Assembly (NCBI GenBank): GCA_963795855.1
Contig: CAWCIZ010000003.1
Span: 992,001-1,056,000, forward strand
Reading direction: 5' to 3'
From: Vulcanimicrobiota bacterium
Lineage (GTDB): Bacteria; Vulcanimicrobiota; Vulcanimicrobiia; Vulcanimicrobiales; Vulcanimicrobiaceae
DNA: 64,000 nt
Both the position numbers and the translations under genes were made by a program. Of the stretch, positions 16,159 to 33,870 are shown in pieces. The number at the start of each line of letters is the position of its first letter. The first letter of the stretch is position 1. The notes beneath the pieces were generated by a model that saw only the letters and a program-made list of their open reading frames with translations, ran no database searches and was not told the DNA's origin.

Positions 16159-18766
16159 ATGGATCCGATTTTCGAAAACCTCCATCCGGACGTCGCGTCG
16201 TGGTGCGACGCGCATTTGCGCGAGCCTACGGTGCCGCAGCGTGCCGCAATACCGCTCGGCCTGGACAAGCGTAATCTGCTGATCTCTTCGCCGACCGGAA
16301 CGGGCAAAACGCTCGCGGCGTTCCTGCCGGTCATCTCGCGGCTCGCGGACCGCCGAGATCGTGACGAGCTGCATGCGCGCACGTTCGTACTCTACGTTTC
16401 GCCGCTGCGCGCGCTCGGTTACGACGTCGAACACAACGTTCGGCGCCCGATGCGCGAGATTGGGCTGCTCGAACGGCCGAACACCGAACGCGCACGCCTG
16501 CGGCGGGGCCGCATTCGCGAAACGCATGCGCGAACCGGCGTGCGGACGGGCGACACGCCGCGCGAAGAACGCCGCTTGATGCTTTCGCGGCCGCCGCACA
16601 TCCTCGTGACGACGCCCGAATCGCTTTCGGTCATGCTGGCGATGGAGTCATATCGCAAGACGCTCGCCGCCGTCGAGACGGTCATCGTCGACGAAGTGCA
16701 CGCTCTTGCCGGGAACAAGCGCGGCTCGCAACTCGCGCTGCTGCTCGAGTCGCTCGAAGAGATCGCGCCGCGAGCCCTTCAACCGGATTGGTCTGTCGGC
16801 CACTATTAGCCCGCTCGATCGCGTCGCACAGTTCCTGGCCGGCACCGGGCGAAGCTGTGAGATCGTCGACGCACGCGGGTTACGCTCGATCTCCATCGAC
16901 GTGGTGGCGCCGTTCACCGGCGCCATGGCGCCGCTGCCCACGATTGCGCGCACGGCCGCGGACTTGAGCGAACGCGAACGCTCGACGCTGGTCTTCACCA
17001 ACGTTCGCAGTCAAGCCGAGCGCGTCGCGCACGACATGGCTGCGTACGTCGAGCCGGATGCGCTCGAAACGATCGACGGCGAGCAGCGCGAAAAAGTCTA
17101 CGACGCGCGGATCGGCATTCACCATTCCGCGCTCGAACGGAGCGTGCGCCATCGCGTGGAAGCGGCACTGCGCGCCGGAAAACTTCGTACGGTCGTCTGC
17201 AGTTCCAGTCTGGAACTCGGCGTAGACATCGGGTGGATCGACCGCGTGCTGCTGATCGGCGGCGCCCGCGGCATGACGGCGGCGCTTCAGCGCGTGGGGC
17301 GCGCGGGACATCGGCCCGGTGCGGTAGCGCGAGGCACGATCATCGCGCAAGATCGCGACGACATCATCGAAGCAGCCGCGACCAAGCGATGCATCGCCGA
17401 CGGCGTGCTGGAAGAGGCGGCGATTCCGCAAGCGCCGCTCGACGTGCTCGCGCAGTGGCTCGTCGGCTTAGCCTGTTACGATAGGCGCGTACCGCTCGAA
17501 CAAGCGCTGTGCATCGCGCGTCGCGCGTACCCGTACGCGGATTTGCAGCGCGACGATCTCGTGCGCTGCGCGCAGTACCTTGCGGGCGCGGGTGCCGGTC
17601 CGGACGAAGCGCACGTGCGACGGTTGGGCTTCGACGGCGAAGCGCTGTACGGGCTGGGGCGTGAAGTCTGTTCCGCGTTTTTCGAAAACGTCGGCACGAT
17701 TCCGGACGAGCAGCATGTGACGGTCCGCATCAAGGGCGGGAACGCGGTAGGACGCGTCGAGGAAAGTTTCGTCAACGACCTGCAGGTCGGAGACGTCTTC
17801 GTTCTCAACGCGAAGACGCTGCGCGTGAAAGAGATCGGCGCGAGCGGAATCGTCGCGGAGCCGTTCGCGGGCCGGCCGACCGTACCGCAGTGGAGTTCGC
17901 ATCTCAAAGGCATTCCCGTTCCGCTCGCGCGCGAAATACACACGCTCCGTAACGGCGTCGCGGAACGGCTGCGAGCGGGTGAACCGGGGCCTGCGCTGGA
18001 GTGGCTGAAAGTTCGCTACGGACTGCGAAGCGCGGAAGCCGCGCACGTCGTTCGATACATCGCGCAGCAGTCCGCAATCTCTGCGATTCCTTCGGAGCGA
18101 AAACCTATCGTCGAAATTTATCGGATGGACCGGCGCCAAACCGCAGTGTATCACACCGGCGCAGGACGCCGCGTCAACGAAACGCTGGCGCGCGTCGTCG
18201 CCGCGCGCGTCTATTCGCAGATTGGCGCAAACACGACGCTGACGACGGATGACGGCGGCTTCATGCTGACGCTCCCTCGAGGCAAGACGCTGGCCGATGA
18301 GGCTTGGGCAGCACTGCTGCATGCGGAGAACTTCGATCGCGATTTGCTGGCGGGCTTGCGGTCCTCGCATCTGCTTCGCAACTTCTTCCGGTATGTCGCG
18401 AACACCGGGCTGCTCGTTCTGCGCCGTGCCGGAGGACGCGCGCTGCGGCGCGGAACGCTCGCGTGGAATAGTCAGAAGATTTTCGAGCGCCTCTACGCCG
18501 CAGATCGAAAGTTTCCGTTGCTGCGCGAAACGTTTCGCGCCGTCACCCGCGATGTGCTGGACGTGCCGGCTGCGCACGAGTACGTCGATGGAATCGAGGG
18601 CCGCCCGCGCGTGCTGCATCCGCTCGCGGCTTCGCCGTTTACGTTCGGTATTCTGACCTCCAGTTTCGGCGATTCCGTGATGCTCGACGATCGCGCAAGC
18701 ATGGTGCAAGCGCTTCACGAGCGCGTGCTCGAAGTGCTCGGCGAGGGCGAGGCAACGGCGGTATGA
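16159..18766 (+). CDS. lhr: Lhr-core-type DEAD/DEAH helicase (frameshift near 16775)
   Basis: SPTGTGKT, YVSPLRAL, TTPESL, DEVH, GLSAT, HHSAL, SSLELGVDIG, QRVGRAGH, NVGTIPD, C-terminal SPF. Confidence 0.9.
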
Positions 18767-19539
18767 ACGGCGCACCGCGGCCCGCCGCGTCCGTCGTGCC
18801 GCTGCTCTGCGGCGCGAGCGCGGCCGCACCGGGCGTGCTGTGGCTGCACGAAAGCCGCGCAATCGTTGCGGCGGACGTGCACTTTGCGTACGAGCACGTC
18901 ATCGGCGCGGCGCTCCCCGCCTGGAGCACCGCGGAAATCGTCGCCTCGCTCACGATAGCGGCGCGAAGTTTCCAAGCGAACGAAATCGTTTTGCTCGGCG
19001 ACGTCATCCACGGCAGCCGCATGAGCGAGGCTGCCGCGCGGTGCGTGCGCGACGCGTTGGACGTGCTGCGCGGCATCGCGACGCTCACAATCGTTGCCGG
19101 AAATCACGAAGGCCGATCGCGCGGTGCGGCGGTGCTGGGTGAAACGGTGGAATCCATCAGACGCGACGGCTGGCTTTTGCTGCACGGCGATCGTCCGCCT
19201 CAGGGCGTCGATAGTTTGTTCACGCGCAGCATCATCGGACATTTGCATCCGAGTCTCGCGCTGCGTGCGGGCACCAGCGCGCCTGCGTTTCTGGCTTCCG
19301 ACAAGCTGATCGTTTTGCCGGCCCTCACGCCGTACTCTCGCGGGCTCGACGTTTGCTCGGAAGCTTGTGCGAGTGCGCTGCTCCCGTGGGGTGTATCGCC
19401 GCGCGATCTCTGCGTTGTAATCGCCGCGGGCGAGTTGCTCTATCCGTTCGGTCTGCTTTCCGAACTGCGGCGTGTCGTGAACGCCGATGAAGGTGCGCTA
19501 GTGCGCAGAAAACCCGGACACCGCGGCCGGCAGCCATGA
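18763..19539 (+). CDS. Metallophosphoesterase (Lhr-associated endonuclease type)
   Basis: ADVH, LGDVIH, GNHE, LHGD, GHLHP, LPA; ATGA-coupled to lhr. Confidence 0.85.
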   Translation: MNGAPRPAASVVPLLCGASAAAPGVLWLHESRAIVAADVHFAYEHVIGAALPAWSTAEIVASLTIAARSFQANEIVLLGDVIHGSRMSEAAARCVRDALDVLRGIATLTIVAGNHEGRSRGAAVLGETVESIRRDGWLLLHGDRPPQGVDSLFTRSIIGHLHPSLALRAGTSAPAFLASDKLIVLPALTPYSRGLDVCSEACASALLPWGVSPRDLCVVIAAGELLYPFGLLSELRRVVNADEGALVRRKPGHRGRQP

Positions 19540-20280
19540 CGGGTGCGCGAAAATCAGCGCGCTCCAAAATAGCAGCAACGACCCCGCGACCGGCACCGCG
19601 GCGCGCCCGCCGCGGGACGTCTTCTCGAAGATCATCAACGCGGTGAGCGCGGCCATCCACCACAGATTCGCAAAACCCGCGGCAAAGCCGATCAGCATGA
19701 GCGCCCAGCAGCATCCCACGCAGAAGAGCCCGTGGCGCGTTCCCAAGCTGAATGCCGCCGCCGGACCACGCCGGTAATAGCGAACCAGAAAATTCGACGG
19801 AAGGCGGCACGCGCGCAGACACGCGTCCTTGAGCGGCGTGAACTGGAATACGCCCGCCGCCGCAAGCACGGCTCCGCTGATGAGCCAGGGATGCGCGGCC
19901 AGCCATGCGACGCGATCGACGGTGCGATGCAGCGCGACGTCGCCCGCGAATGCGAACGCTCCGAAAACCGACCACACCAGAACGTAACCACCGAGAAACA
20001 GCGTAATCGCCGTCGCAGGGCGCGCCTGTCCCGATGCTGCGATTGCGAACATGCGCATGAACGGAAGGCTCGACGGCAGCATCATCGCCGCAATCATCAC
20101 GAGCCAAGCGACGAGGAACAACGCGAGCGCAACTGCGCCAGGAGGTCCGCGCTCGATCAGCCGATCGTGATGCAGAAATACCGCCGAGCCGGAAACCTGC
20201 GCGGCAATGGCAATGCACCACGCGACCAGAACCGCGGCGGGAATTGCAATCGGCAATCCCGCCGGGCGCGTCGACTGCAT
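19498..20280 (-). CDS. DUF2182 predicted metal-binding membrane protein
   Basis: WLVMIAAMMLPS, QFTPLKDACLRACR, GLFCVGCCWALM. Confidence 0.88.
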   Translation of the reverse strand: MQSTRPAGLPIAIPAAVLVAWCIAIAAQVSGSAVFLHHDRLIERGPPGAVALALFLVAWLVMIAAMMLPSSLPFMRMFAIAASGQARPATAITLFLGGYVLVWSVFGAFAFAGDVALHRTVDRVAWLAAHPWLISGAVLAAAGVFQFTPLKDACLRACRLPSNFLVRYYRRGPAAAFSLGTRHGLFCVGCCWALMLIGFAAGFANLWWMAALTALMIFEKTSRGGRAAVPVAGSLLLFWSALIFAHPSWLPAAVSGFSAH

Positions 20281-20281
20281 G

Positions 20282-20941
20282 CTAAACGCTATACGTGATG
20301 TTGTAGTCGCCCTGTATGGCGTTGCGGCCCTCGAACGACCAGGCCCAACCCTTGCCGTACTTCGTCGCATCGACGCGGTGATAACTCGCTTTCGAGACGT
20401 ATGCCGGAGTGCCGGGTATCGTCGAAAAAATCGAGTCGCGCAGCGTCGTCGCGGTGCCGTCCGGTCCGTGATACGGCGACATGGATGCGCTGATGTACGT
20501 ACCGGCCTTGAGTTCGCCCGCGCCTCCACGCACTTCGTGCGCGATCGGAACGCGTTCGAGTGCGACGATCTCGCCGACCAACTGCGCGAGGTCCGCGAGC
20601 GGGCCGCCGAGTTTGCCGGTATACGCATCCGTCAACGCCTGCACTTGCTGATCGGTCGCCTTGTCGTCGACGAGCACGATAACTTTCCAGCTTTTCGGCG
20701 TGAGCACGTTGCCGGGAATTTTGCTCAGAAAAATCATCGAGAGACCGCTGACGTCGACGCCCGCGATCTCGCCGCGATCGAAGTGATAGGCGACGAACGC
20801 ATCGCACGTGCCGTTGTCCGGGTTTTCACCTATCCAACACGGACAAAGGACGTCGCACGAGCACGCCTCGAGAAGCGTGCCTTGGAGAGTGTAAATGGAC
20901 GACTTTACCTGTTCCCGGCCGCCGGGCTGTACTGTTGCCAT
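20282..20941 (-). CDS. DUF1326 domain protein
   Basis: LEACSCDVLCPCW, GTCDA, VDDKATDQQ; adjacent to DUF2182. Confidence 0.88.
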   Translation of the reverse strand: MATVQPGGREQVKSSIYTLQGTLLEACSCDVLCPCWIGENPDNGTCDAFVAYHFDRGEIAGVDVSGLSMIFLSKIPGNVLTPKSWKVIVLVDDKATDQQVQALTDAYTGKLGGPLADLAQLVGEIVALERVPIAHEVRGGAGELKAGTYISASMSPYHGPDGTATTLRDSIFSTIPGTPAYVSKASYHRVDATKYGKGWAWSFEGRNAIQGDYNITYSV

Positions 20942-21721: not shown

Positions 21722-23324
21722 ATGAGCAAAATCGTCGTCATCGGAGGCGGCACGATGGGTGCCGGGATCGCGTTCGTCGCGGCGGCAGCCGGCTTCGACG
21801 TCGACCTCGTCGAACCGGACGTCCCCGCCGCGGACCGCGCCAAGCAGCGCATCGCGCGCGATGCCGAACGCGCCAAACTGCCGGACGCGGCGGCGCGCGT
21901 GCAACTGTACTCCACGCTCCAAAGCGGCTCCCAAGCCGATGCGGTCATAGAAGCGGTGCCGGAACGGCTCGATCTCAAGCGCGAGATCTTCGCTCAGATG
22001 GCGCGCACATTCGACGCCGGTACGCTCTTCGCGACCAATACGTCCTCGCTTTCGGTCGGCGAGATCGCGGAAAGGGTTCCGAACCCGGAGCGCGTGGCGG
22101 GTCTGCATTTCTTCAATCCGCCCGCGGCTATGAAATTGGTGGAGATCGTCCGCGCCGAATGCACGAGCGACGAAACGCTCGAACGCGCGCGAGCGATCGT
22201 CGAGCGCTTCGGAAAAACGGCCGTCTTGACTACGGATTCACCGGGGTTCATCGTGAATCGCGTCGCGCGGCCGTTCTATTTGCAGGCAATGCGTGCTTAC
22301 GCCGCAGGCGTCGCTCCTTTGGACGATCTCGATCGGCTTGCGCGCGGCGCCGGCTTTCGCATGGGGCCGTTCGAGTTGATGGACCTGATCGGAATGGACG
22401 TGAATCTGGCCACCACGGAATCCGTCTACGAGCGCACGGGCGCGGAGCGGTTCGAACCGCTGGCGCTGCAGCGTCAATTGGTCGCGCAGAACCGGCTCGG
22501 AAGAAAAACCGGAGCCGGGTTCTACGATTACGCGCAAGGCGTGCCGCAGCACGACGATGCGGTGCCGGTACCGTCCGCGGAAATGGATAGCGACGAACGA
22601 ATCGTCATCATCGGCTACGCGGGGCTAGCCGTCGAAATGCACGACCGCCTCGCAAAACAGTACGCGAGCGTAGATCTGTGGGAAGACGAAGAGACGCTCG
22701 ACGAGATTTCGCGCGACGCCACCGTCGTTTTCGACGTAGGCGACGGCGCTTCCGATCGCGGTGAGACGATCAAGATGCTCGACGGCGAACTGCCGCCTGA
22801 AACGGTTCTGTTCGCCGACGCGTACGCCACCGATCTTCGAAGCCTCGCGACGCGTTTGGAACATCCGGAACGCGTCGTCGGTTACGGCATTCTCGCGTCG
22901 CTGGAGAATCAGCGTATGGTCGAAATCGTCGACGCCGACGAAACCTCGGACGATGCGCTCGAACTCGCTCAGGAGCTCGTTCGAAAGCATCGGATGCGCC
23001 GTCGTTTTAGTCGAAAACCATGCGGGGCTGTTTCTTGGCCGAACCGTGGGCTCGATCGTGAACGAGGCGGTGTGCGTCGTGCAGAATGAAATCGCAACTC
23101 CGGAAGACGTCGATCTCGCGATGCGGCTCGGAACGAACTATCCGCGCGGCCCGATCGAATGGGGGCGAGAGATCGGCGGCGACCGCGTGCGCCGCATCCT
23201 GCAACGAGTGGCGGCGGAAGATGGCAGTGCGTTCGAGCCGAGCCGCGCGTTGTGGGTTCTCGACGTGCAGCCGCAAGAGGAAACGGCGGAAGAGAACGAC
23301 GCGTATCCGGGTTTGAGGCTTTAG
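21722..23324 (+). CDS. paaH: 3-hydroxyacyl-CoA dehydrogenase, PaaH-like (frameshift near 22980)
   Basis: GGGTMGAG, EAVPE, ATNTSSL, GLHFFNP, GFIVNR, duplicated C-domain with MRLGTNYPRGP. Confidence 0.85.
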
Positions 23325-24509
23325 GTGGAGAGAGAAGTTTGGGTCGTCGATGCGGTGCGTACGCCGATCGGACGGTACGGCGGCGCGCTTGCCGGCGTGC
23401 GTCCCGACGATTTGGCGGCCGCCGTTTTGCGCGCGCTCGTCGAACGCACGGGCGCCGACGCTTCACGCATCGACGACGTGCTGCTCGGTGCGGCAAATCA
23501 GAGCGGCGAAGACAATCGCAACGTCGCGCGCATGGCGGCGCTGCTCGCCGGTTTTCCCGTCGAGGTTCCCGGAACGACCCTCAACCGGTTGTGCGGCAGC
23601 AGTTTGCAGGCGATCAATTCCGCCGCACACGCGATCGCGTGGGGCGATGGCGAGGTGATGATCGCGGGCGGCGTGGAATCGATGACGCGCGCGCCCTTCG
23701 TGCAACTCAAAGCGGAGCGGCCCTACGAACGTCCACCGCAGCTTTTCGACACGACGATCGGCTGGCGCATGATCAACCCGCGTATGAAAGAACTCTACCC
23801 GCCGATATCGCTCGGCGAGACCGCCGAGAAGGTCGCGGCGCAGTACGGCATATCGCGCGTAGAGCAAGATCGGTTCGCGCTCGAATCGCAAAGGCGGACC
23901 AAAGCGGCGACGGCGCGGCACGCGTTCGATGATGAGATCGTTCCCGTGGGAGACGTGCGCGTCGACGAACATCCGCGTCCGGATACGACGCTCGATGCGC
24001 TTGCGAAGCTCAAGCCTGCGTTCAAGAAAGACGGAACCGTCACCGCCGGAAACTCTTCCGGAATCAACGACGGCGCCTCGGCGCTGCTGCTCTGCGAAGC
24101 CGGCGCGGCCAAGCGCCTCGGTTTGCGGCCGATGGCGCGCGTCGTCGCGTCAGGGGTAGCGGGCGTGCACCCCGACGTGATGGGCCTTGGCCCTATACCG
24201 GCAAGCCGCAAGGCGCTCGAACGCGCGGGCCTGAGCATGCGCGACGTCGACCTCGTGGAGATCAACGAAGCGTTCGCGGCTCAGTCCATCGCGTGCATGC
24301 GCGACCTGGAAATCGACGGCGCAAAGGCGAACGTCAACGGGGGCGCAATCGCACTCGGGCATCCGCTCGGCGCGAGCGGAGCGCGGATCGCGACGACGCT
24401 GCTGCACGAGATGCGCCGCAGGCGCGCGCGTTACGGTTTGGCGACGATGTGCATCGGCGTCGGACAAGGCATCACGACGATTTTCGAAAGGCTGGAAAGC
24501 GGAGAATGA
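23325..24509 (+). CDS. paaJ: Thiolase, 3-oxoadipyl-CoA (PaaJ/PcaF) type
   Basis: [41 protein letters not shown]. Confidence 0.88.
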
Positions 24510-25999
24510 CCGCCACTGCACCGAGCATCAAAACCCAACTCCTGATCGGCAAGGAGTGGCTCGACGCGCAAAGCGGCGGCACGTATGCCGACGTGAATCC
24601 GGCAACCGGCGCGGTTCTCGCCGACGTCGCGAATGCGGACGCCGCCGACGTCGATCGCGCGGTGAAGGCGGCCCGCGCGGCATTCGAGCGCGGCAAATGG
24701 GCGACCATGGCTGCATCGCGCCGCGCGAAAATCATTTACAAGATGGCGCAGCTCATCGCCGAGCGCGCGAACGACTTGGCGCTGCTCGAAGTTCGAGACA
24801 ACGGAAAAACGATCGGCACGGCGAAGGGCGAACTCGGCGCAATCGTCGACTGCTTTGAATTTTACGCCGGTGCTGCCACGAAAAATTACGGAAGCACGTT
24901 GCCCGCACCGATGCCGGGATACCTTGCGTACACGGTGCGCGAACCGGTCGGCGTCGTCGGCGCGATCGTTCCGTGGAATTTCCCGCTGCTGCTCGCGTCC
25001 TGGAAGGTGGCGCCCGCCTTGGCCGCGGGGTGCGCCGTCGTGCTCAAACCCGCGCCGTCCACGCCGCTTACGGCAATCGAACTGGGCAAGATTGCGCTCG
25101 AGGCGGGATTACCCGAAGGCGTTCTCAACGTGCTCACCGGTTCCACCACGAACCTGGGCCAAGCGATCGTCGAGCACCCCGGCATCGACAAGATCGCGTT
25201 TACCGGAAGTACGGCAACCGGCAAGCGCGTTGCCGCGACGGCCGCGCAAACGGTCAAGCGCGTAACGCTGGAACTGGGCGGCAAGTCGCCTTCGATCGTA
25301 TTCGACGATGCCGATCTGACGCAAGCGGTGAACGGCGCGTTGTACGGTATTTTCTACAACGCCGGGCAAACGTGCGAAGCGCGCTCGCGCGTGCTGGTGG
25401 ACGAGCGAATCGCGGACGAATTCATCGCGCAATTTCGCGACAAGGCGCTCAAGCTGCGAATCGGCAACCCGGAAGATCCGCAGACGCAAATCGGCGCAAT
25501 AACGATGCGGGAGCAGTTCGAAAAGATTCGATCGTACTGCGAGATCGGTGCCTCTGAAGGTGCGACCAAACTTTTCGGCGGCGAGCCCGCGCAGCTTACG
25601 AGCGATTTCGTGCGCGGCTGGTTTTGGAATGCGACGGCATTCGAAGCGCAGGCCGGCCATCGCATCGCGCGCGAAGAGATCTTCGGCCCGGTAGCCGCGT
25701 TCGTGCGGTTCAAGGATGAAGCGCATGCCGTCGCGCTCGCGAACGACTCGGAGTACGGATTATCCGCCAGCGTTTGGTCGCAGAACGTCGGCCGTGTGAA
25801 TCGCGTGGCGGCAGCGCTTCGCAGCGGCACGGTCGCGATCAACACGCCGTACGCCGTTTTCCCCGGCGTACCGTTCGGAGGGTATAAACAATCCGGTTAC
25901 GGGCGCGAACTGGGGTACGAGACTGTAGCGCTCTACTCGGAAACGAAAAGCGTGTTGACGTACGTGGGCGAAAAACCCATCAATCCATTTGGAGCTTGA
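24506..25999 (+). CDS. NAD(P)-dependent aldehyde dehydrogenase
   Basis: [31 protein letters not shown]-coupled to the thiolase. Confidence 0.92.
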
Positions 26000-26332
26000 G
26001 CCATCGAAGCGCTGAAAATCGGGGAACGTTACCAGACGACGTATGGGACGCTGTGGAAGGACGGCACGTACTTTCCTCGCGGTACGAGCGTGCTGGTCGT
26101 CGGGCTTCATCTCGAAGAAGGCTTTTGCGTTCGTTTCCCGGCGGAAGTCGAGGGCGAGTCGTTGGAGACGTGGGAAGATTGGGGCGAGTGTGATTTCCTC
26201 GCGGAGGTGGGGAGCATCGAAGAAATCGCGCCGGTTTCACAAGCGATGCTCGCGGAGGCACGCGAGGTTCTTCGCGATGCGGAAGACGGCTGTCACCTGC
26301 ACTTGCACGAGGGCGACGAGCCGCAGAGTTAG
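25996..26332 (+). CDS. Small acidic hypothetical protein (probable indel near start)
   Basis: Open frame from 26000 (IEALKIGERYQTTYGTLWKDG...EGDEPQS); a TTG overlaps the ALDH stop. Confidence 0.55.
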
Positions 26333-26434
26333 CGATACTATCCACAAGGTGAGCGCGCGCGCGCGGAAAATTGTGACGGCGGCAGCGGTGCTACGATCCG
26401 CGGCCGCTTCTTCGTTTTTTGAAAAGGATTGTTT

Positions 26435-29120
26435 ATGAAGGTACGGGCTTTGGTTTTTGCGGCGATGGCGGCCGTGCTGGCAATGCCGTCGCTCGCGCGC
26501 GCCGCCGACAACGCAGGCACCATCGCCGGAAGCGTGCACAACACGTCCGGCGCGCCGATCGCCGACGCAAACGTCATAGCGAGCGGAGCGGTCACTCAGC
26601 GCACCTCGACCGATTCCTCAGGCAAGTTCGCGTTGACGCTTCCGGCCGGATTCTACCGAATCGACGTGAGCAAAGGCGGCTACCTCGCAGCCACCGAGAC
26701 GGATCTCACCTTACTCGCGGGCGCGACGCTGCCGGTCGACATCACGCTGCAGCAAGCGGACCTCGCTTCGCTCAAGACGATTGCGCGCGTGACCAGCTCC
26801 CGCTCGCAGCTCGATCAACACCGGAGCCGCAGCAATCGCGATTGCCGGACGTCAAGAGTTCGCAAATCTTGCGTCCCCGCAGATCAACGACGTCGTCGAA
26901 CGTATTCCCGGTGCGGACATCGAGAAAGGCTCCAGTTCGCCGAACACGAGCTTCACCGTGGCCGGCACGCAGGGCTATGAAACGCAAGTATTGATCGAGG
27001 GCCATCCCGTTTCGATCGGACGCTACGGCGTCTGGTTTTCTCAGTTCTTCAACTCGTTCATGGTAGGTAATGTCGAGGCGCAGCTCGGCCCCGGCAACAC
27101 CACGCCGTTCGCGGGCACCGCGGTCGGCGGCACGATCAACATCACGACGCCCGCGTATACGAAGAACGGCGCCTATCATTTGGTGACCGGCGAAGATTCG
27201 CTCGCCGGCAGCTACACCAACGCGCTGTACAGCGGCAGCAGCGGTAAACTTTCGTACATGGCGGGGCTGGGAACGGCCGGCGTGAACACGCCGTATACCG
27301 GCACGTACGGTTGCGTTTTGGATGCGACGAACAAAAAGACGTGGAACACCGCGGGCGCGCAAGGCGTCGTCTCGTTCTGCGGCGACCTGGGCGGCGGGCA
27401 GTTCAACAAGGCGGAACTGCTCAAAGCGAAATGGGACTTCTCGCCGAGCACCTCGTTCGAATTCGGCTTTATGGGATCGCAGGCCGGATACAATCCGCAG
27501 GGCAGTGCGTACGGGTTGCTCGCGCCCAATACGACGGTTGCCAACTGCATCACGGTCGGCAGCGGCGCATCCGTGCACCAAGAATGCACGAATCCCGCGT
27601 ACGCCGGCATGGCAGGACAGAAAATCAACGGTCTGTTTTTCTATCCCGGATCGGCGGTATCGAACAACATGCCGCTCTTCACCGCGCAGTTGCGCACCGC
27701 CCTCGGCAACAATACGCTGCTGGTTCGACCGTACGGCGGATCGATCACGCGCATCATCGACGGCTCGGGCGAAGCGGACTACGGCATCTGGTGGTATCCG
27801 AAGTCGGATCCGAACGCCGCGAACGCGTGCTCGAACGCGAGCTTCGGCAAACCGATCGTCACGCCGGGTACGGGTATGAACGTCTGTCAAGACACGCCGT
27901 ACACGACGGTGGAAACGGACAAGCTGCGCGGCGCGACGCTGTCGTTCATCCATCCGATGGGCTTGGATCAGCTCACGTTCAACTACGACTACCACAGCGA
28001 TGAAACGTACGCGATCGCCGGCAATCCGAATCAGGCGGGGGGCTTACCGCCCGCCGTTCCCGACACGATGGAGAAGTACAACTCGCTTTCGCTCACGGGC
28101 GATTTCGCGCTGACCGAACGCTTGACGCTCAAAGCCGGCGCGTATCAAAACTGGTGGTATCTGAACGGCTGGGCGCCGACGCTGAACGGTGCGAAGGGAA
28201 CGATCGTTCCGTTCACTCGTACCGTCGGTTCGTTCGATCCGCACGTTGCGCTCACGTATCAACCGCATGGCGGCGAATCGATTCGTTTGGCGCTCGGCAC
28301 GTCGACGACGTTCCCGTACGCCGGTATCGTCAGCGGTACGGCGTACACGACGCCCGGCGCAACCGGTACCGTCGCGCTTAACGGTAAAAATCCGCTGCTC
28401 TCGCCTGAGAAAGCGTACGAAGCGGATCTCGGTTTCGACAAGCGCCTTTGGGACGGCAGCATCGTGAGCCTCGATCTCATCGACACGCAGGTGCACAACG
28501 TGTTCGAGAACTCCTCGATCGCTGTCACCGGCGAGCCGTACAGCGTCATCTATCAACCGCTCAACGCAGCGAATCTTTCCAGCGAATTGGCGATGCTGAC
28601 GTGGCGGCGCGAGCCGCTCGCCGGTTGGGGTTACCGGCTTTCGGTAACCGCAGATCGCTCCGTTCCGAGCGGCATTCCGATCCCCGCATCGCAGAAGAGC
28701 TATTCGATTCCCTCAAACGGCGTGCAGCAGTGCAGCGACGGCGGAAGCGCCGTGTGCATCCCGTATCTCAAAGGATATGCGGCGCTCGAATATACCTTTA
28801 ACGATCGGACGTTCGCGCACATCGGCGTGAACTACCAAGGCAAGAACAACACGTACTTCCAGCCGCCGTTCGCGATCTGGGACGCCACGCTGCGTCGCCC
28901 GATTCCCAACACGCCGCTAAGCGTCCAGGCGTCGGTGTACAATTTGTTCGACACCAACACGTTCGGCGGTCTCGTGACGCCGAACGCCGGAACGCCGCTC
29001 GTGGGCGAGAACGGCACCGGGCAGTACGGCACGTACACGCAGTCGGTACCATTCCCGCTGCTTCCGGTGCAGCCGCGCACGCTGCGCGTGCAGCTCGACT
29101 ACAACGTCGGGGGCCGGTAA
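26435..29120 (+). CDS. TonB-dependent receptor with N-terminal carboxypeptidase-regulatory-like domain (frameshift near 26800)
   Basis: Signal peptide, GTIAGSV, plug region ERIPG/ETQVLIEGHP, NPLLSPEKA, VYNLFD, PRTLRVQLDY. Confidence 0.85.
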
Positions 29121-29158
29121 GGCATACCATCACTCCCGAGACCGTACCACCGAGCGCG

Positions 29159-30001
29159 TTATTCCCGCGCGGCGCGGAAGAAGTGTTCCGCTTTATTCGA
29201 AACGAGCGAGTAGTATTCGCGGAACAGCGCGGCCGCGACCGTCCCAGGCCAATGCGCGGGCAACAGCGTGCTCGGTAAACCGGGATCGATGTACGTGAAT
29301 TTGCGGTAATCGTGGACAAGCCACATGCGCTCCACGAAGGCCTCGTCATCGCGTAGCGTGCGCCGCGCGCGCTCCTCATGCAGGCGCGGTTCGTAGCGCC
29401 CGATGAACTCGCGGTACTGCTCGGCAATTGCCGGCAGATTCCAGCAGCGTTCGAGCAGTTCGCGGTCGGTGTGCGGGCCGCGATACTCGCCGACGAACAG
29501 ATCGACGGTGTCGAGCACCTGATTCGCTTCCGCCGCGCCGCGCGCGGCTTCGAGCGCGTCATTGGGCGAGACCCACGTGGACGCCGACAGCGGCGCCCAG
29601 CCGAGCACGAGCAAATCTTTGCGCAGGCCGTCACGCCCCTCGCGCCGGCTCTCGGCGACCGAGTACGTGAGCATTCGCCACCGGCCGTCCCACTCGACGA
29701 CCGGACCGTAGATCCGCGGACTGATTGCCTCGACGCGCCGACGGCCTCGGTCGGTGAGGCAGTAATAGGAGCGATTTCCGCGTTTGTCGGCGATAAGCCA
29801 GCCTTGCCGGGACATGCGAGAAACCGCCTGTCGCACGGCGGCCTCGGAGATTCCGAACTCCCCCATAAGGCGAATCAGACCCCCGACCCAAAGCTCGCCT
29901 TTGGCCGTCGGATCGCGGTGGACGAAGTCCCCGAACAACGTATAAATGAACGAATTGGGGCGCGTTACCGCGCGCTGCTCAGGAGCGAGCGCCACCTTCA
30001 C
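29159..30001 (-). CDS. paaX: PaaX family transcriptional regulator
   Basis: SFIYTLFGD, AVRQAVSRM, WDGRW, YIDPGLPSTLLPAHWPG. Confidence 0.92.
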   Translation of the reverse strand: MKVALAPEQRAVTRPNSFIYTLFGDFVHRDPTAKGELWVGGLIRLMGEFGISEAAVRQAVSRMSRQGWLIADKRGNRSYYCLTDRGRRRVEAISPRIYGPVVEWDGRWRMLTYSVAESRREGRDGLRKDLLVLGWAPLSASTWVSPNDALEAARGAAEANQVLDTVDLFVGEYRGPHTDRELLERCWNLPAIAEQYREFIGRYEPRLHEERARRTLRDDEAFVERMWLVHDYRKFTYIDPGLPSTLLPAHWPGTVAAALFREYYSLVSNKAEHFFRAARE

Positions 30002-30007
30002 GTCTCC

Positions 30008-30071
30008 TTGACACGCGCATCCGGGAACGATAATATGACACTATTCTCACGGTACGGTGATTTTCCGTCAT
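30008..30071 (+). promoter_or_regulatory. Sigma70-type promoter of the boxB-like operon with overlapping inverted repeat
   Basis: TTGACA-N17-TAATAT (30008-30036); ATGAC-N27-GTCAT (30035-30071). Confidence 0.6.
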
Positions 30072-30104
30072 GGAACCAAGCGGCCCATGACAAGAGGAGT
30101 TTCC

Positions 30105-31232
30105 ATGGCGCGCATTTCCACCTTCGACGACTGGATCGACCTGCTCCAGGAATGGCAGAAGGACATCGGGCTGAACCAGGAGCTTATCGATCGCTTTATG
30201 CCCGGCTACCAGTTCGAAGCGAAGTACGGCGAACTTACCGGGCGTGAAATCTCGTTCGGCGACTTCAAGGGCGAGCGCCGCTGGGAGAAGATTCTCGAGA
30301 TTCCCGATCAGCGTATGCGCGACGCACTGCTGAACATGATCGTGTATCAGGGAGACACCGAATTCGCCTCCAACGAGCAGCAGCGTTTTCTCGTCAACAA
30401 CGCTCCCAGCGAATACGATCTGGCTTCGCTGGTGCGGATTATGGTGGAAGAAACCCGTCACGGCTATCAGATGTGCCATCTGCTCGTGAACAACTTCGGC
30501 CACGACGGCAAAATCGAAGCGCAGAAGATGCTCGAACGCCGGGCCTTCGGCAAGAAGAACCGCCTGCTCAACGCGTTCAACGACGACGTTACGCATTGGC
30601 TCGACTTTTTCGCCTACACGAATTTCATGGACCGCGACGGAAAGTTTCAGCTGACGATGCTTTCGCATTCCGGGTTTGCTCCGCTCGCGCAATCGATGGG
30701 CCCGATGCTGCGCGAAGAATCGTACCACATGGGCACCGGCATCTCGGGACTGCGCCGCATCGCGCAGGCGAACGTCATTCCGGTCGAACTGCAGCAGAAA
30801 TACTACAACAAATGGATCTCCGGTTCGCTGGATCTTTTCGGCACCGACCATTCCGGGTCTGCGCAATGGGCTTATACCTGGGGCATCAAAGGCCGCGTCG
30901 ACGAGGACAAAGCCGGCGAAACCGTCGACAAAGAACGTTTGAACGAGCGCGCTCGCGGCCAGTTCTACGAAGAGTGCGAGAAGACGATCGAGCGCGTGAA
31001 CGCGGTCAACGCCTCGGAAACGAAGTTGTACATGCCGGACATCCGGTTCAATCGCAAGATCGGCGCGTACGCCGGCCAGTACTGGAGCGTCGACGGCCGC
31101 GAGTTGACCAAAGAGCAGTGGGACGCGTACGTTCAGAACGTTTTGCCTACCGCTCAAGACGACGAGCAACTCAAAGCGTATTTCAAAGATCCCTCGTGGA
31201 TCGCACCAAAAGGTAAAAGTGAGGCAGCGTAG
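30105..31232 (+). CDS. BoxB-like aryl-CoA epoxidase diiron subunit (short form)
   Basis: QGDTEFASNEQQR, VEETRH, MDRDGKFQL, REESYH, SLDLFG; GAGGAG RBS. Confidence 0.85.
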   Translation: MARISTFDDWIDLLQEWQKDIGLNQELIDRFMPGYQFEAKYGELTGREISFGDFKGERRWEKILEIPDQRMRDALLNMIVYQGDTEFASNEQQRFLVNNAPSEYDLASLVRIMVEETRHGYQMCHLLVNNFGHDGKIEAQKMLERRAFGKKNRLLNAFNDDVTHWLDFFAYTNFMDRDGKFQLTMLSHSGFAPLAQSMGPMLREESYHMGTGISGLRRIAQANVIPVELQQKYYNKWISGSLDLFGTDHSGSAQWAYTWGIKGRVDEDKAGETVDKERLNERARGQFYEECEKTIERVNAVNASETKLYMPDIRFNRKIGAYAGQYWSVDGRELTKEQWDAYVQNVLPTAQDDEQLKAYFKDPSWIAPKGKSEAA

Positions 31233-31234
31233 CC

Positions 31235-32104
31235 ATGACAACGACGGAAAACGGTCTTCGCGCGGCTGATAGCCGGCAAACCCCATTCGGACGTGAAACC
31301 CGCGCGTTCGACGGCAAACGCGTTATCGACTACTCGAAAGACGGCCACGTCGCGGTCATCGAGATGAACGATCCGCCGGCAAACACGTACACGCACGAGA
31401 TGATGCGGCAGCTGGACGAGGCGATTCTCGACGCGCGTTTCGACCAGGACGTCGAAGTGCTCTTGATCACCGGCAAAGGCGAGAAATTCTTCTCCGCCGG
31501 TGCGAACATCGGCATGCTGAACAGCGTCACGCCGGAGTTCAAATACAACTTCTGCCTGCACGCGAACGAGACGCTCTCCCGCCTGGAGCAAACGCCGAAA
31601 CTGGTCATCGCGGCGCTCAACGGCCACTGCGTGGGCGGCGGTCTCGAGATCGCCATGGCTTGCGACATCCGCATCGCGCGGCAAGACGCCGGCAAGATCG
31701 GCCTGCCGGAAGTTGCTCTCGGCGTACTGCCCGGAACCGGCGGCACGCAGCGGCTGGCTCGTCTAGTCGGAAAATCGCGCGCTATCGAACTAATGTGCAC
31801 CGGCCGCACGTACAGTTTCGAACAGGCGCAGGAATGGGGCATCGTCAACGACGTTCTCGAGGGCGACGCCCAGAGTTTCCGCGATCAAGTGCTGACTTAC
31901 GCCAAGCAGTTCACGACGCCGAACAAGGCGCCGATGGCGATCGGCCACATCAAGCGCAGCGTCCAGACCGGCATGGAACTGCCGCTCAACGACGCTCTCG
32001 CGCTGGAGCGCGATCTCCAGTCGCTGCTCTTCAAGAGCGAAGACGCGAAAGAAGGCATTGCCGCTTACAACGAAAAGCGCATGGCCAAATTCAAGAACCG
32101 GTAG
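31235..32104 (+). CDS. Crotonase-family enzyme resembling the BoxC N-terminal domain
   Basis: FSAGANIGML, KYNFCLHANET, GGGLEIAMACD, LPEVALGVLPGTGG. Confidence 0.8.
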   Translation: MTTTENGLRAADSRQTPFGRETRAFDGKRVIDYSKDGHVAVIEMNDPPANTYTHEMMRQLDEAILDARFDQDVEVLLITGKGEKFFSAGANIGMLNSVTPEFKYNFCLHANETLSRLEQTPKLVIAALNGHCVGGGLEIAMACDIRIARQDAGKIGLPEVALGVLPGTGGTQRLARLVGKSRAIELMCTGRTYSFEQAQEWGIVNDVLEGDAQSFRDQVLTYAKQFTTPNKAPMAIGHIKRSVQTGMELPLNDALALERDLQSLLFKSEDAKEGIAAYNEKRMAKFKNR

Positions 32105-32138
32105 GGCAGCCGCGAACGCTTGGTCGAAAACCCGCCGC

Positions 32139-33870
32139 ATGTTCAGCATACGACGGGTTCTCGCTTGCGCCGCCCTAGCCGGCTTGATCGGTGCGGCGCC
32201 CGCGCCTTCGCCTGCGAAAAGCGCAGACGCGCAATTTCAAACGCTGGCGCACGACTTTTTCTACTGGGGCTTCAAAGAATCGCCGACGCAGGCAACTGCC
32301 GTCGGCGTTCATACATATGACGCGCAGCTCGACGACATGTCGCAAGCGGCGGTCGCGCGCCGGGATGCGACGATCAAATCCTATCTCGCAAAATTTGAGG
32401 CGATCGATCCGTCGGCGTTGACGCCGGACGACGCGCTCGATCGAACGCTCGTTATCGACGCAATCCGCGACCAGGTTCTCTCGACCGACACGCTTCAGGA
32501 TTGGAAGCACAACCCGGACATCTACACGGGGCTCGCCAGCGGTGCGCTCTTCCTACTGATCTCACGCGATTTCGCGCCGCTTCCGGTGCGCATGCGGGAC
32601 GCAATCGCCCGCGAACGCGCGATACCGGCGATGCTCGTCCGCGCGAAGGCAAACATCGTTTCGGTGGACGCGATGACGCAGCAAATCGCCGCCGAACAGG
32701 CACAAGGAAGCGTCGGTTTCTTCGCACAGACCATTCCGCAGGCGTTTGCGCCGGTGCATGACGCCGGACTGCAGGCTCAGTTGAAAACGGCGAATGCCGC
32801 CGCGATGGCGGCGCTGAAGAGCTACGCTTCGTGGATATCCGCCCTGAAACCGCGCGGCACGTTTGCTATCGGCAGTGACGCGTACGAGAAAAAGCTGCAA
32901 TACGAAGACGCGCTCTCCATGCCCGTGGCGCAGTACCTGTCGTACGGCGAAAAGGCTCTCGCGCAGACGCGCGCGCAATTCATCGCTACTGCAAAGCGAA
33001 TCGATGCGAAGCGGACGCCGCAGCAGGTATACGCTTCGCTTGCTAAGGACTATCCGCCGCCATCGCAGCTGATTGAGCAAAGCCACCAGCGATCTCACGC
33101 GGCTGCGCGCATTCGTGATCTCGCATCATATCGTGACGATGCCGTCGGACGCGAGCATCAAAGTTATTCCCACGCCGCCGTTCGAACGCGCGTTCATCAC
33201 CGCCGCGGAAGATTCGCCGGGCGCTCTCGAAACCGTCGCGACGCAGGCGTATTACTATGTGACGCCGCCGAACAACGCGTGGCCGGCCGCACGCACCGCG
33301 GGCTTCATGGCGCAATTCAACGACTATCAGTTCCCGATTATCTCGGCACACGAAGTGTATCCGGGGCACTTCACCAACTTCGCAATCGATCGGCATTTGA
33401 AACTCAGCCTCACGCGCAGACTGCTGAGCAGCTCGGAATTCGCGGAAGGCTGGGCGCATTACGGCGAGCAGATGATGGTCGATCAGGGTTGGGGCAACGG
33501 CGATCCGCACGTTCGGCTGGCGCAATTGGAAGAGGCGCTGCTGCGCGAGTGCCGGTACGTCGCCGGGGTGAAACTTCATACTGCCGGATGGAGCGTCAAA
33601 CAAGCGGAGCAGCTGTTCGAGAGTCAATGTTTCCAAACGCCTGCGGTGGCGCTGGAAGAATCGATGCGCGGAACGCAGGATCCGATGTACGGATATTACA
33701 CGCTGGGCAAATTGATGATCCTCAAATTGCGCGCGGACTACAAAAAGAAACTTGGCTCGGCGTTCACGCTCGAGAAATTCCACGACGCGTTCCTCGCGCA
33801 CGGCGATCCGCCGATTCCTTTGGTCCGCAGGATGATTCTCGGCAGCGCGGACGACGGCAGACCGCTCTAG
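32139..33870 (+). CDS. DUF885 family exported protein (frameshift near 33075)
   Basis: Signal peptide, HEVYPGH, FAEGWAHYGE, YTLGKLMI, FHDAFL. Confidence 0.88.

Follow-up and report, generated by a model that had tools for sequence, protein, structure and literature searches.

The window, a stretch of 64,000 nucleotides from contig CAWCIZ010000003.1 of a Vulcanimicrobiota bacterium (GCA_963795855.1), contains a locus that probably serves the degradation of aromatic compounds in a soil bacterium (Table 1). A paaX gene lies divergent from the gene of a 375-aa diiron protein, which is followed by that of a 289-aa crotonase, while paaH, paaJ and aldehyde dehydrogenase (ALDH) genes, which abut or overlap, are located upstream, all at the positions given in a preliminary description of the sequence. 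The paaH gene is interrupted by one frameshift near 22979, likely an assembly error, and a relative (L003) has an intact version of 533 aa. The PaaJ-like thiolase matches E. coli PaaJ at 56%. Between the paaH-paaJ-ALDH block and the paaX-oxygenase block sits a TonB-receptor-like gene, a variable insert occurring in 10 of 80 related loci, leaving a role as dedicated importer unsupported. The arrangement is otherwise conserved across these 80 loci, with the crotonase in 77, paaX in 71, ALDH in 69, paaJ in 64 and paaH in 62, the missing genes falling mostly at contig ends; this synteny is not due to chance.

Table 1 Features of the compact oxygenase locus (positions within the window)
Feature	Position	Strand	Evidence
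paaH-like gene (PaaH-like 3-hydroxyadipyl-CoA dehydrogenase)	21722..23324	+	PRK08268 and TIGR02279 match both pieces
PaaJ/PcaF-like 3-oxoadipyl-CoA thiolase	23325..24509	+	PRK09050 558 bits, TIGR02430 549 bits, both below cut-off
Aldehyde dehydrogenase (ALDH)	24506..25999	+	PF00171
109-aa SH3/Tudor-like protein, likely ATC start	26003..26332	+	Kept in 69/80 related loci
TonB-dependent-receptor-like gene, two frames	26429..29120	+	PF13620, PF14905, TIGR01782, weak
PaaX-family repressor, divergent from oxygenase	29159..30001	-	PF07848, PF20803, PF08223 (all three pass); TIGR02277 245 bits (cut-off 265)
Sigma-70-type promoter of the oxygenase-crotonase operon	30008..30036	+	TTGACA, 17 nt, TAATAT
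37-bp imperfect palindrome, predicted PaaX operator	30035..30071		ATGAC...GTCAT; overlaps -10 box and start region
Diiron acyl-CoA oxygenase of 375 aa, compact and BoxB-like; putative benzoyl-CoA 2,3-epoxidase	30105..31232	+	TIGR03225 231 bits
Single-domain crotonase, 289 aa; predicted formate-releasing ring-opening dihydrolase	31235..32104	+	Clade affiliated with the catalytic N domain of BoxC

The canonical Box system consists of a full-length BoxB, a two-domain BoxC, the reductase BoxA, the regulator BoxR and a benzoate-CoA ligase. Judged by sequence, by a quick tree search and by a structure model, the 375-aa oxygenase groups with BoxB and away from PaaA, the grouping on which its identity had been made to depend. 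It scores 231 bits against the BoxB model TIGR03225 (cut-off 499) and 36 bits against the PaaA model, its best PDB match is 3PER (E 2e-55), and its predicted structure (pLDDT 94) superposes on BoxB 3PM5 with a TM-score of 0.88, against 0.51–0.54 for PaaA. Across the Azoarcus evansii BoxB structures (3PER, 3PM5, 3Q1G), TM-scores span 0.82–0.88. All six iron ligands, carried by the motifs GDTE, EETRH, DRDG and EESYH, are kept (E86, E116, H119, D176, E205 and H208, equivalent to BoxB E120, E150, H153, D211, E240 and H243). Among the seven benzoyl-orienting residues of 3PM5, taken like the diiron ligands from an excerpt of PMC5489048, five are identical (Q116, T119, S123, F193 and F203 in 3PM5 numbering) and two differ (F206Y and T210M), while PaaA departs from BoxB at four of those five second-shell sites. 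Neither the compact oxygenase nor A. evansii BoxB has a structural subunit nearby. By contrast, the compact oxygenase is about 100 aa shorter (375 vs about 475 aa), shares 38% identity with BoxB, stays below the family cut-off, lacks a BoxA and belongs to a separate tree clade, all members of which carry three changes near the substrate (P121F, F206Y and T210M/I/V; P121F, F206Y and T210M in the present protein). The preliminary description of a BoxB-like but N-terminally shorter enzyme was right about the kinship and incomplete about the shortening, which also involves the C terminus and two internal deletions. From sequence and modelled fold, we conclude that this oxygenase represents a compact form of BoxB.

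The crotonase had been likened to the N-terminal domain of BoxC at half the size, and trees, profile alignment and active-site residues bear this out. Its best-scoring HMM matches are generic hydratases, and against the BoxC model TIGR03222 it aligns over one domain with 91 bits (cut-off 712). Nevertheless, hhalign matched it to the BoxC N domain with 99.6% probability and 40% identity over 193 columns, and its C107, E138 and E159 align with C111, E146 and E168 of BoxC 2W3P, which we take to be catalytic residues. Catalysis in BoxC is confined to the N domain, which holds two glutamates (PMC4498308). In quick tree searches run without bootstrap, where BoxC N domains sit on a very long branch, 11 partners of compact BoxB and 5 BoxC N domains split from 13 other crotonases (SH-aLRT 100), and joining the crotonase clade to PaaF was marginally rejected (p-AU 0.048). 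Furthermore, an NFC-x-x-x-NET segment of BoxC type is retained in the crotonase (FCLHANE in 71/80 and 44/80 loci) and was not found in PaaF, PaaG or the other crotonases aligned. These sequence comparisons place it with the N-terminal, catalytic part of BoxC and not with PaaF/PaaG or generic enoyl-CoA hydratases. Unlike the two fused domains of BoxC, it is a single domain with a normal crotonase C terminus. Its best PDB match, 2PPY (243 bits), presumably from Geobacillus kaustophilus, carries the FC...NET segment, is also the second-best match of BoxC N behind BoxC itself, and is probably a solved member of the crotonase clade associated with compact BoxB. This structure is annotated just as an enoyl-CoA hydratase. 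A Bacillus strain is reported to use a route of Box type. A crotonase encoded next to a second paaAC on a Thermus plasmid was considered as a further member of the clade; it lacks the segment and falls outside the clade.

Far from the streamlined local oddity initially envisaged, the compact oxygenase belongs to a large and widespread family, represented by 4190 clusters at 90% identity among 8000 scored and by 109 of 143 genomes of the class; we found no published paper on this family. The pairing with the crotonase holds across phyla, an orthologue accompanying the oxygenase in 47 of 80 metagenome loci and in 39 of the 49 that are at least 8 kb long. Compact oxygenases lacking a crotonase partner nearby also occur (L100-L104; a NuoF-linked clade).

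Upstream of the oxygenase, the promoter element TTGACA is conserved among relatives, and the palindrome is present in 70 of 72 upstream regions accompanied by paaX and in 0 of 8 lacking it. A matrix built for this element scores the site at 37.3 bits, against 13.9 for the next best site of the genome and 17.9 for the best in shuffled sequences, so that the palindrome is predicted to be the PaaX operator. The matrix scan of the genome found no operator upstream of paaH and hence no sign that paaH-paaJ-ALDH share this regulation; these genes are tied to the oxygenase by position and co-inheritance. At the Nudix site of 14 genomes without a BoxB match, paaJ or ALDH is kept in none. The ALDH matches its counterparts next to the compact BoxB of other lineages at 48–53%, and a BoxD-like protein and PaaZ at 26%, suggesting a functional stand-in for BoxD rather than its orthologue. 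Throughout the family, the 109-aa gene neighbours the Nudix gene; it occurs in 117 of 126 genomes, among them those without BoxB. Its product has no Pfam or PDB-sequence match, and only weak, non-significant matches to SH3/Tudor folds. Since it accompanies the Nudix gene in BoxB-less genomes too and is missing from both other oxygenase-carrying families, it was rejected as a missing pathway subunit or electron carrier and probably lies outside the pathway.

The window was said to contain no boxA, boxR or CoA ligase, which is correct, and boxA and boxR are also missing from the host genome (86% complete), where the best BoxA match reaches 25 bits, a single BoxR query gave no tblastn match, PaaX occurring instead, and full-length boxC is absent. 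A search of this genome for canonical boxA, boxC, boxR or paaABCE genes that could complete a standard pathway elsewhere returned none. None of 151 class genomes has a BoxA match over the cut-off. The absence of BoxA is class-wide, and it extends to canonical boxBC clusters: in the phylum, the neighbourhoods of seven such clusters were inspected and have no boxA either. Some canonical box clusters have likewise been reported without BoxA (PMC10803450). Those without adjacent boxA (Nonomuraea L207; L109, L120-L125) differ from the compact locus by their full-length BoxB and two-domain BoxC. The Nonomuraea cluster resembles it by a paaX gene between boxB and boxC, so that the compact locus is not alone in combining PaaX with Box genes. 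No electron donor gene was found, none of three PF00111 and eight PF07992 matches being tied to the locus. The sole PF00175 match was discarded as donor, being likely pyrimidine-related since it stands beside genes that we take to be dihydroorotate dehydrogenase-like and pyrF-like. Candidate donors include an 80-aa ferredoxin (G000:C6:53895-54140), a flavodoxin-like protein next to a canonical cluster (L125) and a ferredoxin/NuoF-like pair (L126).

Genomic context points to benzoyl-CoA as the likeliest substrate. A ligase over the cut-off of TIGR02262, a subfamily model spanning several aryl-CoA ligases, directly follows the oxygenase-crotonase pair in five related genomes (G125, G144, G150, G158 and G181), and another locus (L146) encodes one with 687 bits. 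In addition, 11 of 80 metagenome loci encode a large subunit resembling that of 4-hydroxybenzoyl-CoA reductase, whose known product is benzoyl-CoA. PaaK exceeds its cut-off in 10 of 151 class genomes and in none of the 44 of the largest genus. In the host genome, no benzoate-CoA ligase passes the cut-off, the best match to such a ligase being an acetyl-CoA synthetase, and an anthraniloyl-CoA cluster combines an AbmA-type gene (1320 bits) with an anthranilate-type ligase in five frame pieces; an aryl-CoA ligase is thus lacking from the window, as described, and not from the genome. The aerobic 2-aminobenzoate ligase of Azoarcus also accepts benzoate (PMC8388817, Table 1). Speaking against this assignment, all six genomes of genus g8 encode the compact oxygenase and none the ligase or AbmA.

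Taken as a whole, the compact oxygenase and crotonase behind a conserved palindrome beside paaX probably constitute a minimal benzoyl-CoA epoxidase route in which a general cellular donor replaces BoxA, a reading to which we give a probability of roughly 0.63. For its substrate, chemistry, inducer and donor, we infer the following course. An aryl-CoA ligase encoded elsewhere would form benzoyl-CoA, which would free the operator from PaaX; the oxygenase would convert benzoyl-CoA with O2 to its 2,3-epoxide, using electrons from a general cellular donor rather than BoxA; and ring opening with release of formate would fall to the crotonase, probably a homo-oligomer where BoxC is a two-domain chain. 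Oxidation of 3,4-dehydroadipyl-CoA semialdehyde would be the task of the ALDH, with PaaH and PaaJ completing the path to succinyl-CoA and acetyl-CoA; the intervening hydration or lactonase step is not encoded at the locus. The scores of oxygenase and crotonase, both far under the BoxB and BoxC cut-offs (231/499 and 91/712), count against a Box reading.

Since two residues of the pocket, and a third next to it, depart from BoxB, the same epoxidation and ring opening could act preferentially on a substituted (hydroxy-, amino-, methyl- or methoxy-) benzoyl-CoA, which we consider unlikely, if the most serious alternative. The fixation of F206Y, T210M and P121F in the compact clade, the breadth of TIGR02262, the anthranilate-type nature of the only aryl-CoA ligase found in the host genome and the Class I CoA-transferase pairs that follow the oxygenase-crotonase pair in other families are consistent with it. 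However, 86 of 151 class genomes already encode a monooxygenase dedicated to anthraniloyl-CoA, the reductase-like neighbours would strip a 4-hydroxyl group to give plain benzoyl-CoA, and the available part of PMC5489048 ascribes the steric role of T210 to the peptide backbone. More doubtful is an oxygenase that hydroxylates an aryl-CoA in the manner of PhgA, perhaps through an NIH shift, or that acts on a non-aromatic acyl-CoA, beside a crotonase serving as an ordinary hydratase in beta-oxidation. Compact oxygenases standing alone, the generic hydratase fold and scores of the crotonase, and the conversion of 4-hydroxybenzoate to gentisate by PhgABC in E. coli, for which the part of PMC11848710 at hand describes no added dedicated reductase gene, would fit such a role, but recurring neighbours include no thioesterase or ring-cleavage dioxygenase, the crotonase retains its BoxC-type segment, and ALDH, PaaH and PaaJ suit a ring-opened aldehyde. 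Finally, a reduced phenylacetyl-CoA route, with the oxygenase replacing PaaABCE under its usual regulator, is highly improbable: the locus shares a PaaX-type repressor and PaaH- and PaaJ-type lower pathway with E. coli, and the operator matrix also picks out a site of 18.7 bits between paaZ and paaA of that species, but the oxygenase is a single BoxB-type chain with a BoxB-like pocket, phenylacetyl-CoA is not turned over by BoxB (PMC4498308), most carriers lack PaaK, and the host genome has a single PF05138 gene and no orthologues of PaaB, C, D, E, G, I, K or Z.

Beyond the minimal benzoyl-CoA epoxidase route itself, we tentatively raise a broader scenario, with odds nearer one in three, in which the compact pair would be the ancestral modular core of Box and a major unrecognised aerobic route for aromatic acids in uncultured soil phyla. 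This core would be BoxA-less, with interchangeable donors (host ferredoxin or flavodoxin, or a NuoE/NuoF-like pair in another clade) and regulators (PaaX, TetR), and insertion and domain duplication would have given rise to textbook BoxB and two-domain BoxC from it. If the proposed route is true, the curated BoxB, BoxC and BoxA models would overlook an entire branch of aerobic ring cleavage via CoA thioesters, near-core in a widespread class of soil bacteria (109/143 genomes), and estimates of the aromatic-degradation potential of these soils would be too low. It would also provide a defined operator for a PaaX with benzoyl-CoA as inducer, a probable function for structure 2PPY, a handle on the purpose of the second BoxC domain, and two small enzymes for studying how electrons reach a diiron epoxidase that has no reductase of its own.

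The locus holds a Box-pathway variant that is both real and conserved. Its gene arrangement is as given in the preliminary description, plus an overlooked 109-aa gene between the ALDH and TonB-receptor-like genes, and synteny is kept in relatives: of 80 related loci, the crotonase is found in 77, paaX in 71, the ALDH in 69, paaJ in 64, paaH in 62 and the TonB-receptor-like gene in 10. The nearest named loci to this genome (3.06 Mb, 86% complete) belong to the Vulcanimicrobiota (Eremiobacterota), mostly Baltobacteraceae, with protein identities of 78–91%. Numerous assembly frameshifts limit claims on broken genes; frames are split in several genes at 16159–18766, 21722–23324, 26429–29120 and 32058–33870, consistent with assembly indel errors.

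Features of the locus in gene order, and of one cluster elsewhere in the genome
Feature	Position	Strand	Remark
DUF1326 + PpoB2 (PF09948) gene pair	19498–20941		immediately upstream of Nudix gene
Nudix gene		-	
paaH-like	21722–23324	+	one frameshift; intact in related locus L003
paaJ-like	23325–24509	+	
ALDH	24506–25999	+	
109-aa gene	26003–26332	+	
TonB-receptor-like gene			
paaX	29159–30001	-	
Sigma-70 promoter	30008–30036		
37-bp palindrome	30035–30071		overlaps promoter
Compact oxygenase	30105–31232	+	375 aa
Crotonase	31235–32104	+	289 aa
Anthraniloyl-CoA (abm-type) cluster (L084)	C2:157000–173035		AbmA-type monooxygenase/reductase, SDR, hydratase, acyl-CoA dehydrogenase, ligase, RidA-like gene

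BoxB is the top family of the oxygenase (231 bits vs a cut-off of 499; PaaA model, 36 bits) and 3PER its closest solved structure. The predicted structure (pLDDT 94, from a 40-row alignment) matches BoxB chains (TM 0.82–0.88) better than PaaA (0.51–0.54) or 4MUD (0.50). Compared with the BoxB residues listed in PMC5489048, all 6/6 iron ligands are kept, plus Q116, T119, S123, F193 and F203; the protein differs by F206Y, T210M and P121F, which are common to the compact clade. A quick tree of 40 rows places the class members (support 96) and canonical BoxB (100) in separate clades, both far from PaaA, as the proposed BoxB-like nature implied; its deep order is unresolved and its root unreliable, so the tree does not show ancestry. 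Strong compact-type matches occur in 109 of 143 other class genomes (91/124, 3/3 and 15/16 by family), a manual tally that includes the unpublished G116 and excludes 11 genomes whose matches are canonical-type or fragments. The more distant the taxon, the lower the identity, a pattern like that of vertical descent. Among 8000 clusters scored in a profile search, 4190 reached E 1e-100 or better, a count covering all lengths and possibly including canonical BoxB; their names include Eremiobacterota, Acidobacteria, Binatia, Eisenbacteria, Armatimonadetes and Udaeobacter, and many carry an automatic JGI label "BoxB". In other families of the phylum, compact homologues stand alone amid housekeeping genes (secE-nusG, ftsY; L100:9687–10844, L101–L104). 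A further BoxB-like diiron clade (L108, L118, L119; 413–438 aa) has 6/6 ligands, DRVG replacing DRDG, and no Box neighbours.

The crotonase is labelled by HMMs as a generic hydratase. Its alignment with the BoxC N domain spans 193 columns at 40% identity and sets C107, E138 and E159 against BoxC C111, E146 and E168, residues with presumed functional roles, and 2PPY is its best PDB match and the second-best of BoxC N. The branch uniting compact-BoxB partner crotonases with BoxC N domains received SH-aLRT 100 in a 29-row tree built without the C domains of BoxC and without one partial row, and 96 with these kept (33 rows). Constraining the clade to join PaaF was marginally rejected (p-AU 0.048). 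The suggested likeness to BoxC N was thus borne out, with good but not final support given the long BoxC N branch. According to PMC4498308, catalysis in BoxC resides in the N domain only, and BoxB is subject to a product inhibition that BoxC relieves, which fits the tight oxygenase–crotonase gene pairing.

The paaH-paaJ-ALDH run sits between the Nudix and 109-aa genes, a site where 14 genomes without a BoxB match have paaJ in 0/14, ALDH in 0/14 and paaH in 4/14. All three precede the pair on one strand in another family of the class (f2, L090), and ALDH, thiolase and dehydrogenase recur next to it in metagenome loci. ALDH identity to BoxD or PaaZ is only 26%. No middle-step hydratase/lactonase was found in the locus; candidate genes map to C1:365 kb and C2:503 kb. 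The 109-aa gene, excluded as a pathway member, is present in 117/126 family genomes and 0/24 of the other two families (including unpublished G206). Its apparent start codon is an ATC preceded, at 8 nt, by a GGAG within the ALDH 3' end (25989–26332); 23/68 related loci lack ATG/GTG/TTG near the start and have ATC or ATA there, ~8 nt past GGAG, and the ATC start recurs where the gene adjoins Nudix alone. It is modelled as an SH3/Tudor-like barrel, for which no fold match reached significance.

The lack of BoxA and BoxR first noticed in the window extends to the genome, where searches found no BoxA or full-length BoxC, tblastn with BoxR and PaaB, C, D, E, I and K gave no match, and PF05138 has one gene. 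BoxA exceeds the cut-off in 0/151 class genomes, and neither BoxA nor PaaE matched in 80 genome and 80 metagenome loci. boxA is also absent from seven canonical boxBC neighbourhoods of the phylum (L109, L120–L125) and one of Nonomuraea (L207:8749–12766), where paaX lies between boxB and boxC and 19 kb held no boxA match. One of the seven has a presumably flavodoxin-like gene between benzoate-CoA ligase and boxR (L125:5242–5718). Canonical box clusters without BoxA are noted in PMC10803450. In one clade the oxygenase gene is paired with a small gene of ferredoxin-like type in 11 loci and with a NuoF-like one in 8 loci, the latter scoring 414 bits and so below its cut-off; compact boxB precedes these in that order, with no crotonase nearby, at L126:9142–10736, L129, L130, L136 and L137. 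In our genome, an 80-aa ferredoxin weakly matching BoxA positions 7–84 is only a candidate electron donor. A Thermus thermophilus plasmid (L206:5535–12230) carries a second paaA/paaC, an ALDH and two crotonases, with no evident PaaE-type reductase.

The reported absence of a CoA ligase holds for the window only: the anthraniloyl-CoA cluster includes one (in five frame pieces), and an over-cut-off TIGR02262 (benzoate-CoA-ligase family) gene directly follows the pair in 5 relatives of 3 genera, often with a CoA-transferase pair next. In family f3, most loci likewise have such a CoA-transferase pair 3' of the oxygenase and crotonase genes. AbmA exceeds the cut-off in 86/151 class genomes (including unpublished G206) and PaaK in 10/151. 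The Azoarcus counterpart of the anthranilate-type ligase accepts benzoate (PMC8388817). Genus g8, with the oxygenase and without TIGR02262 ligase or AbmA, counts against a ligase-based substrate argument. A 4-hydroxybenzoyl-CoA-reductase-like large subunit occurs in 11/80 metagenome loci; the single large subunit scanned passed the cut-off, the scanned beta and gamma subunits falling below. In these 11, hcrCAB-like genes cluster with compact boxB, as at L201:12659–16703, L153, L202 and L205.

The palindrome occurs in 70/72 upstream regions with paaX and 0/8 without, the latter from few lineages and not independent. A matrix trained with the window excluded scores its site at 37.3 bits; the runner-up in the genome reaches 13.9 and shuffled sequence at most 17.9. 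The palindrome recurs in four distant class loci (L105–L107, L117); in family f3 the matrix finds nothing above 11 bits. In E. coli the matrix also scores the paaZ–paaA interval, where a site reaches 18.7 bits, which is suggestive only.

Our literature search found no paper on compact BoxB, single-domain BoxC or Eremiobacterota Box genes; primary Box papers and supplements, outside its coverage, may list such homologues. Box-type benzoate metabolism was reportedly described in a thermophilic Bacillus in 2001. Although the two proteins fail BoxB/BoxC membership by cut-off and architecture, the pair very probably (0.83) works like BoxB/BoxC on some benzoyl-CoA-type substrate, benzoyl-CoA itself being the likeliest one.
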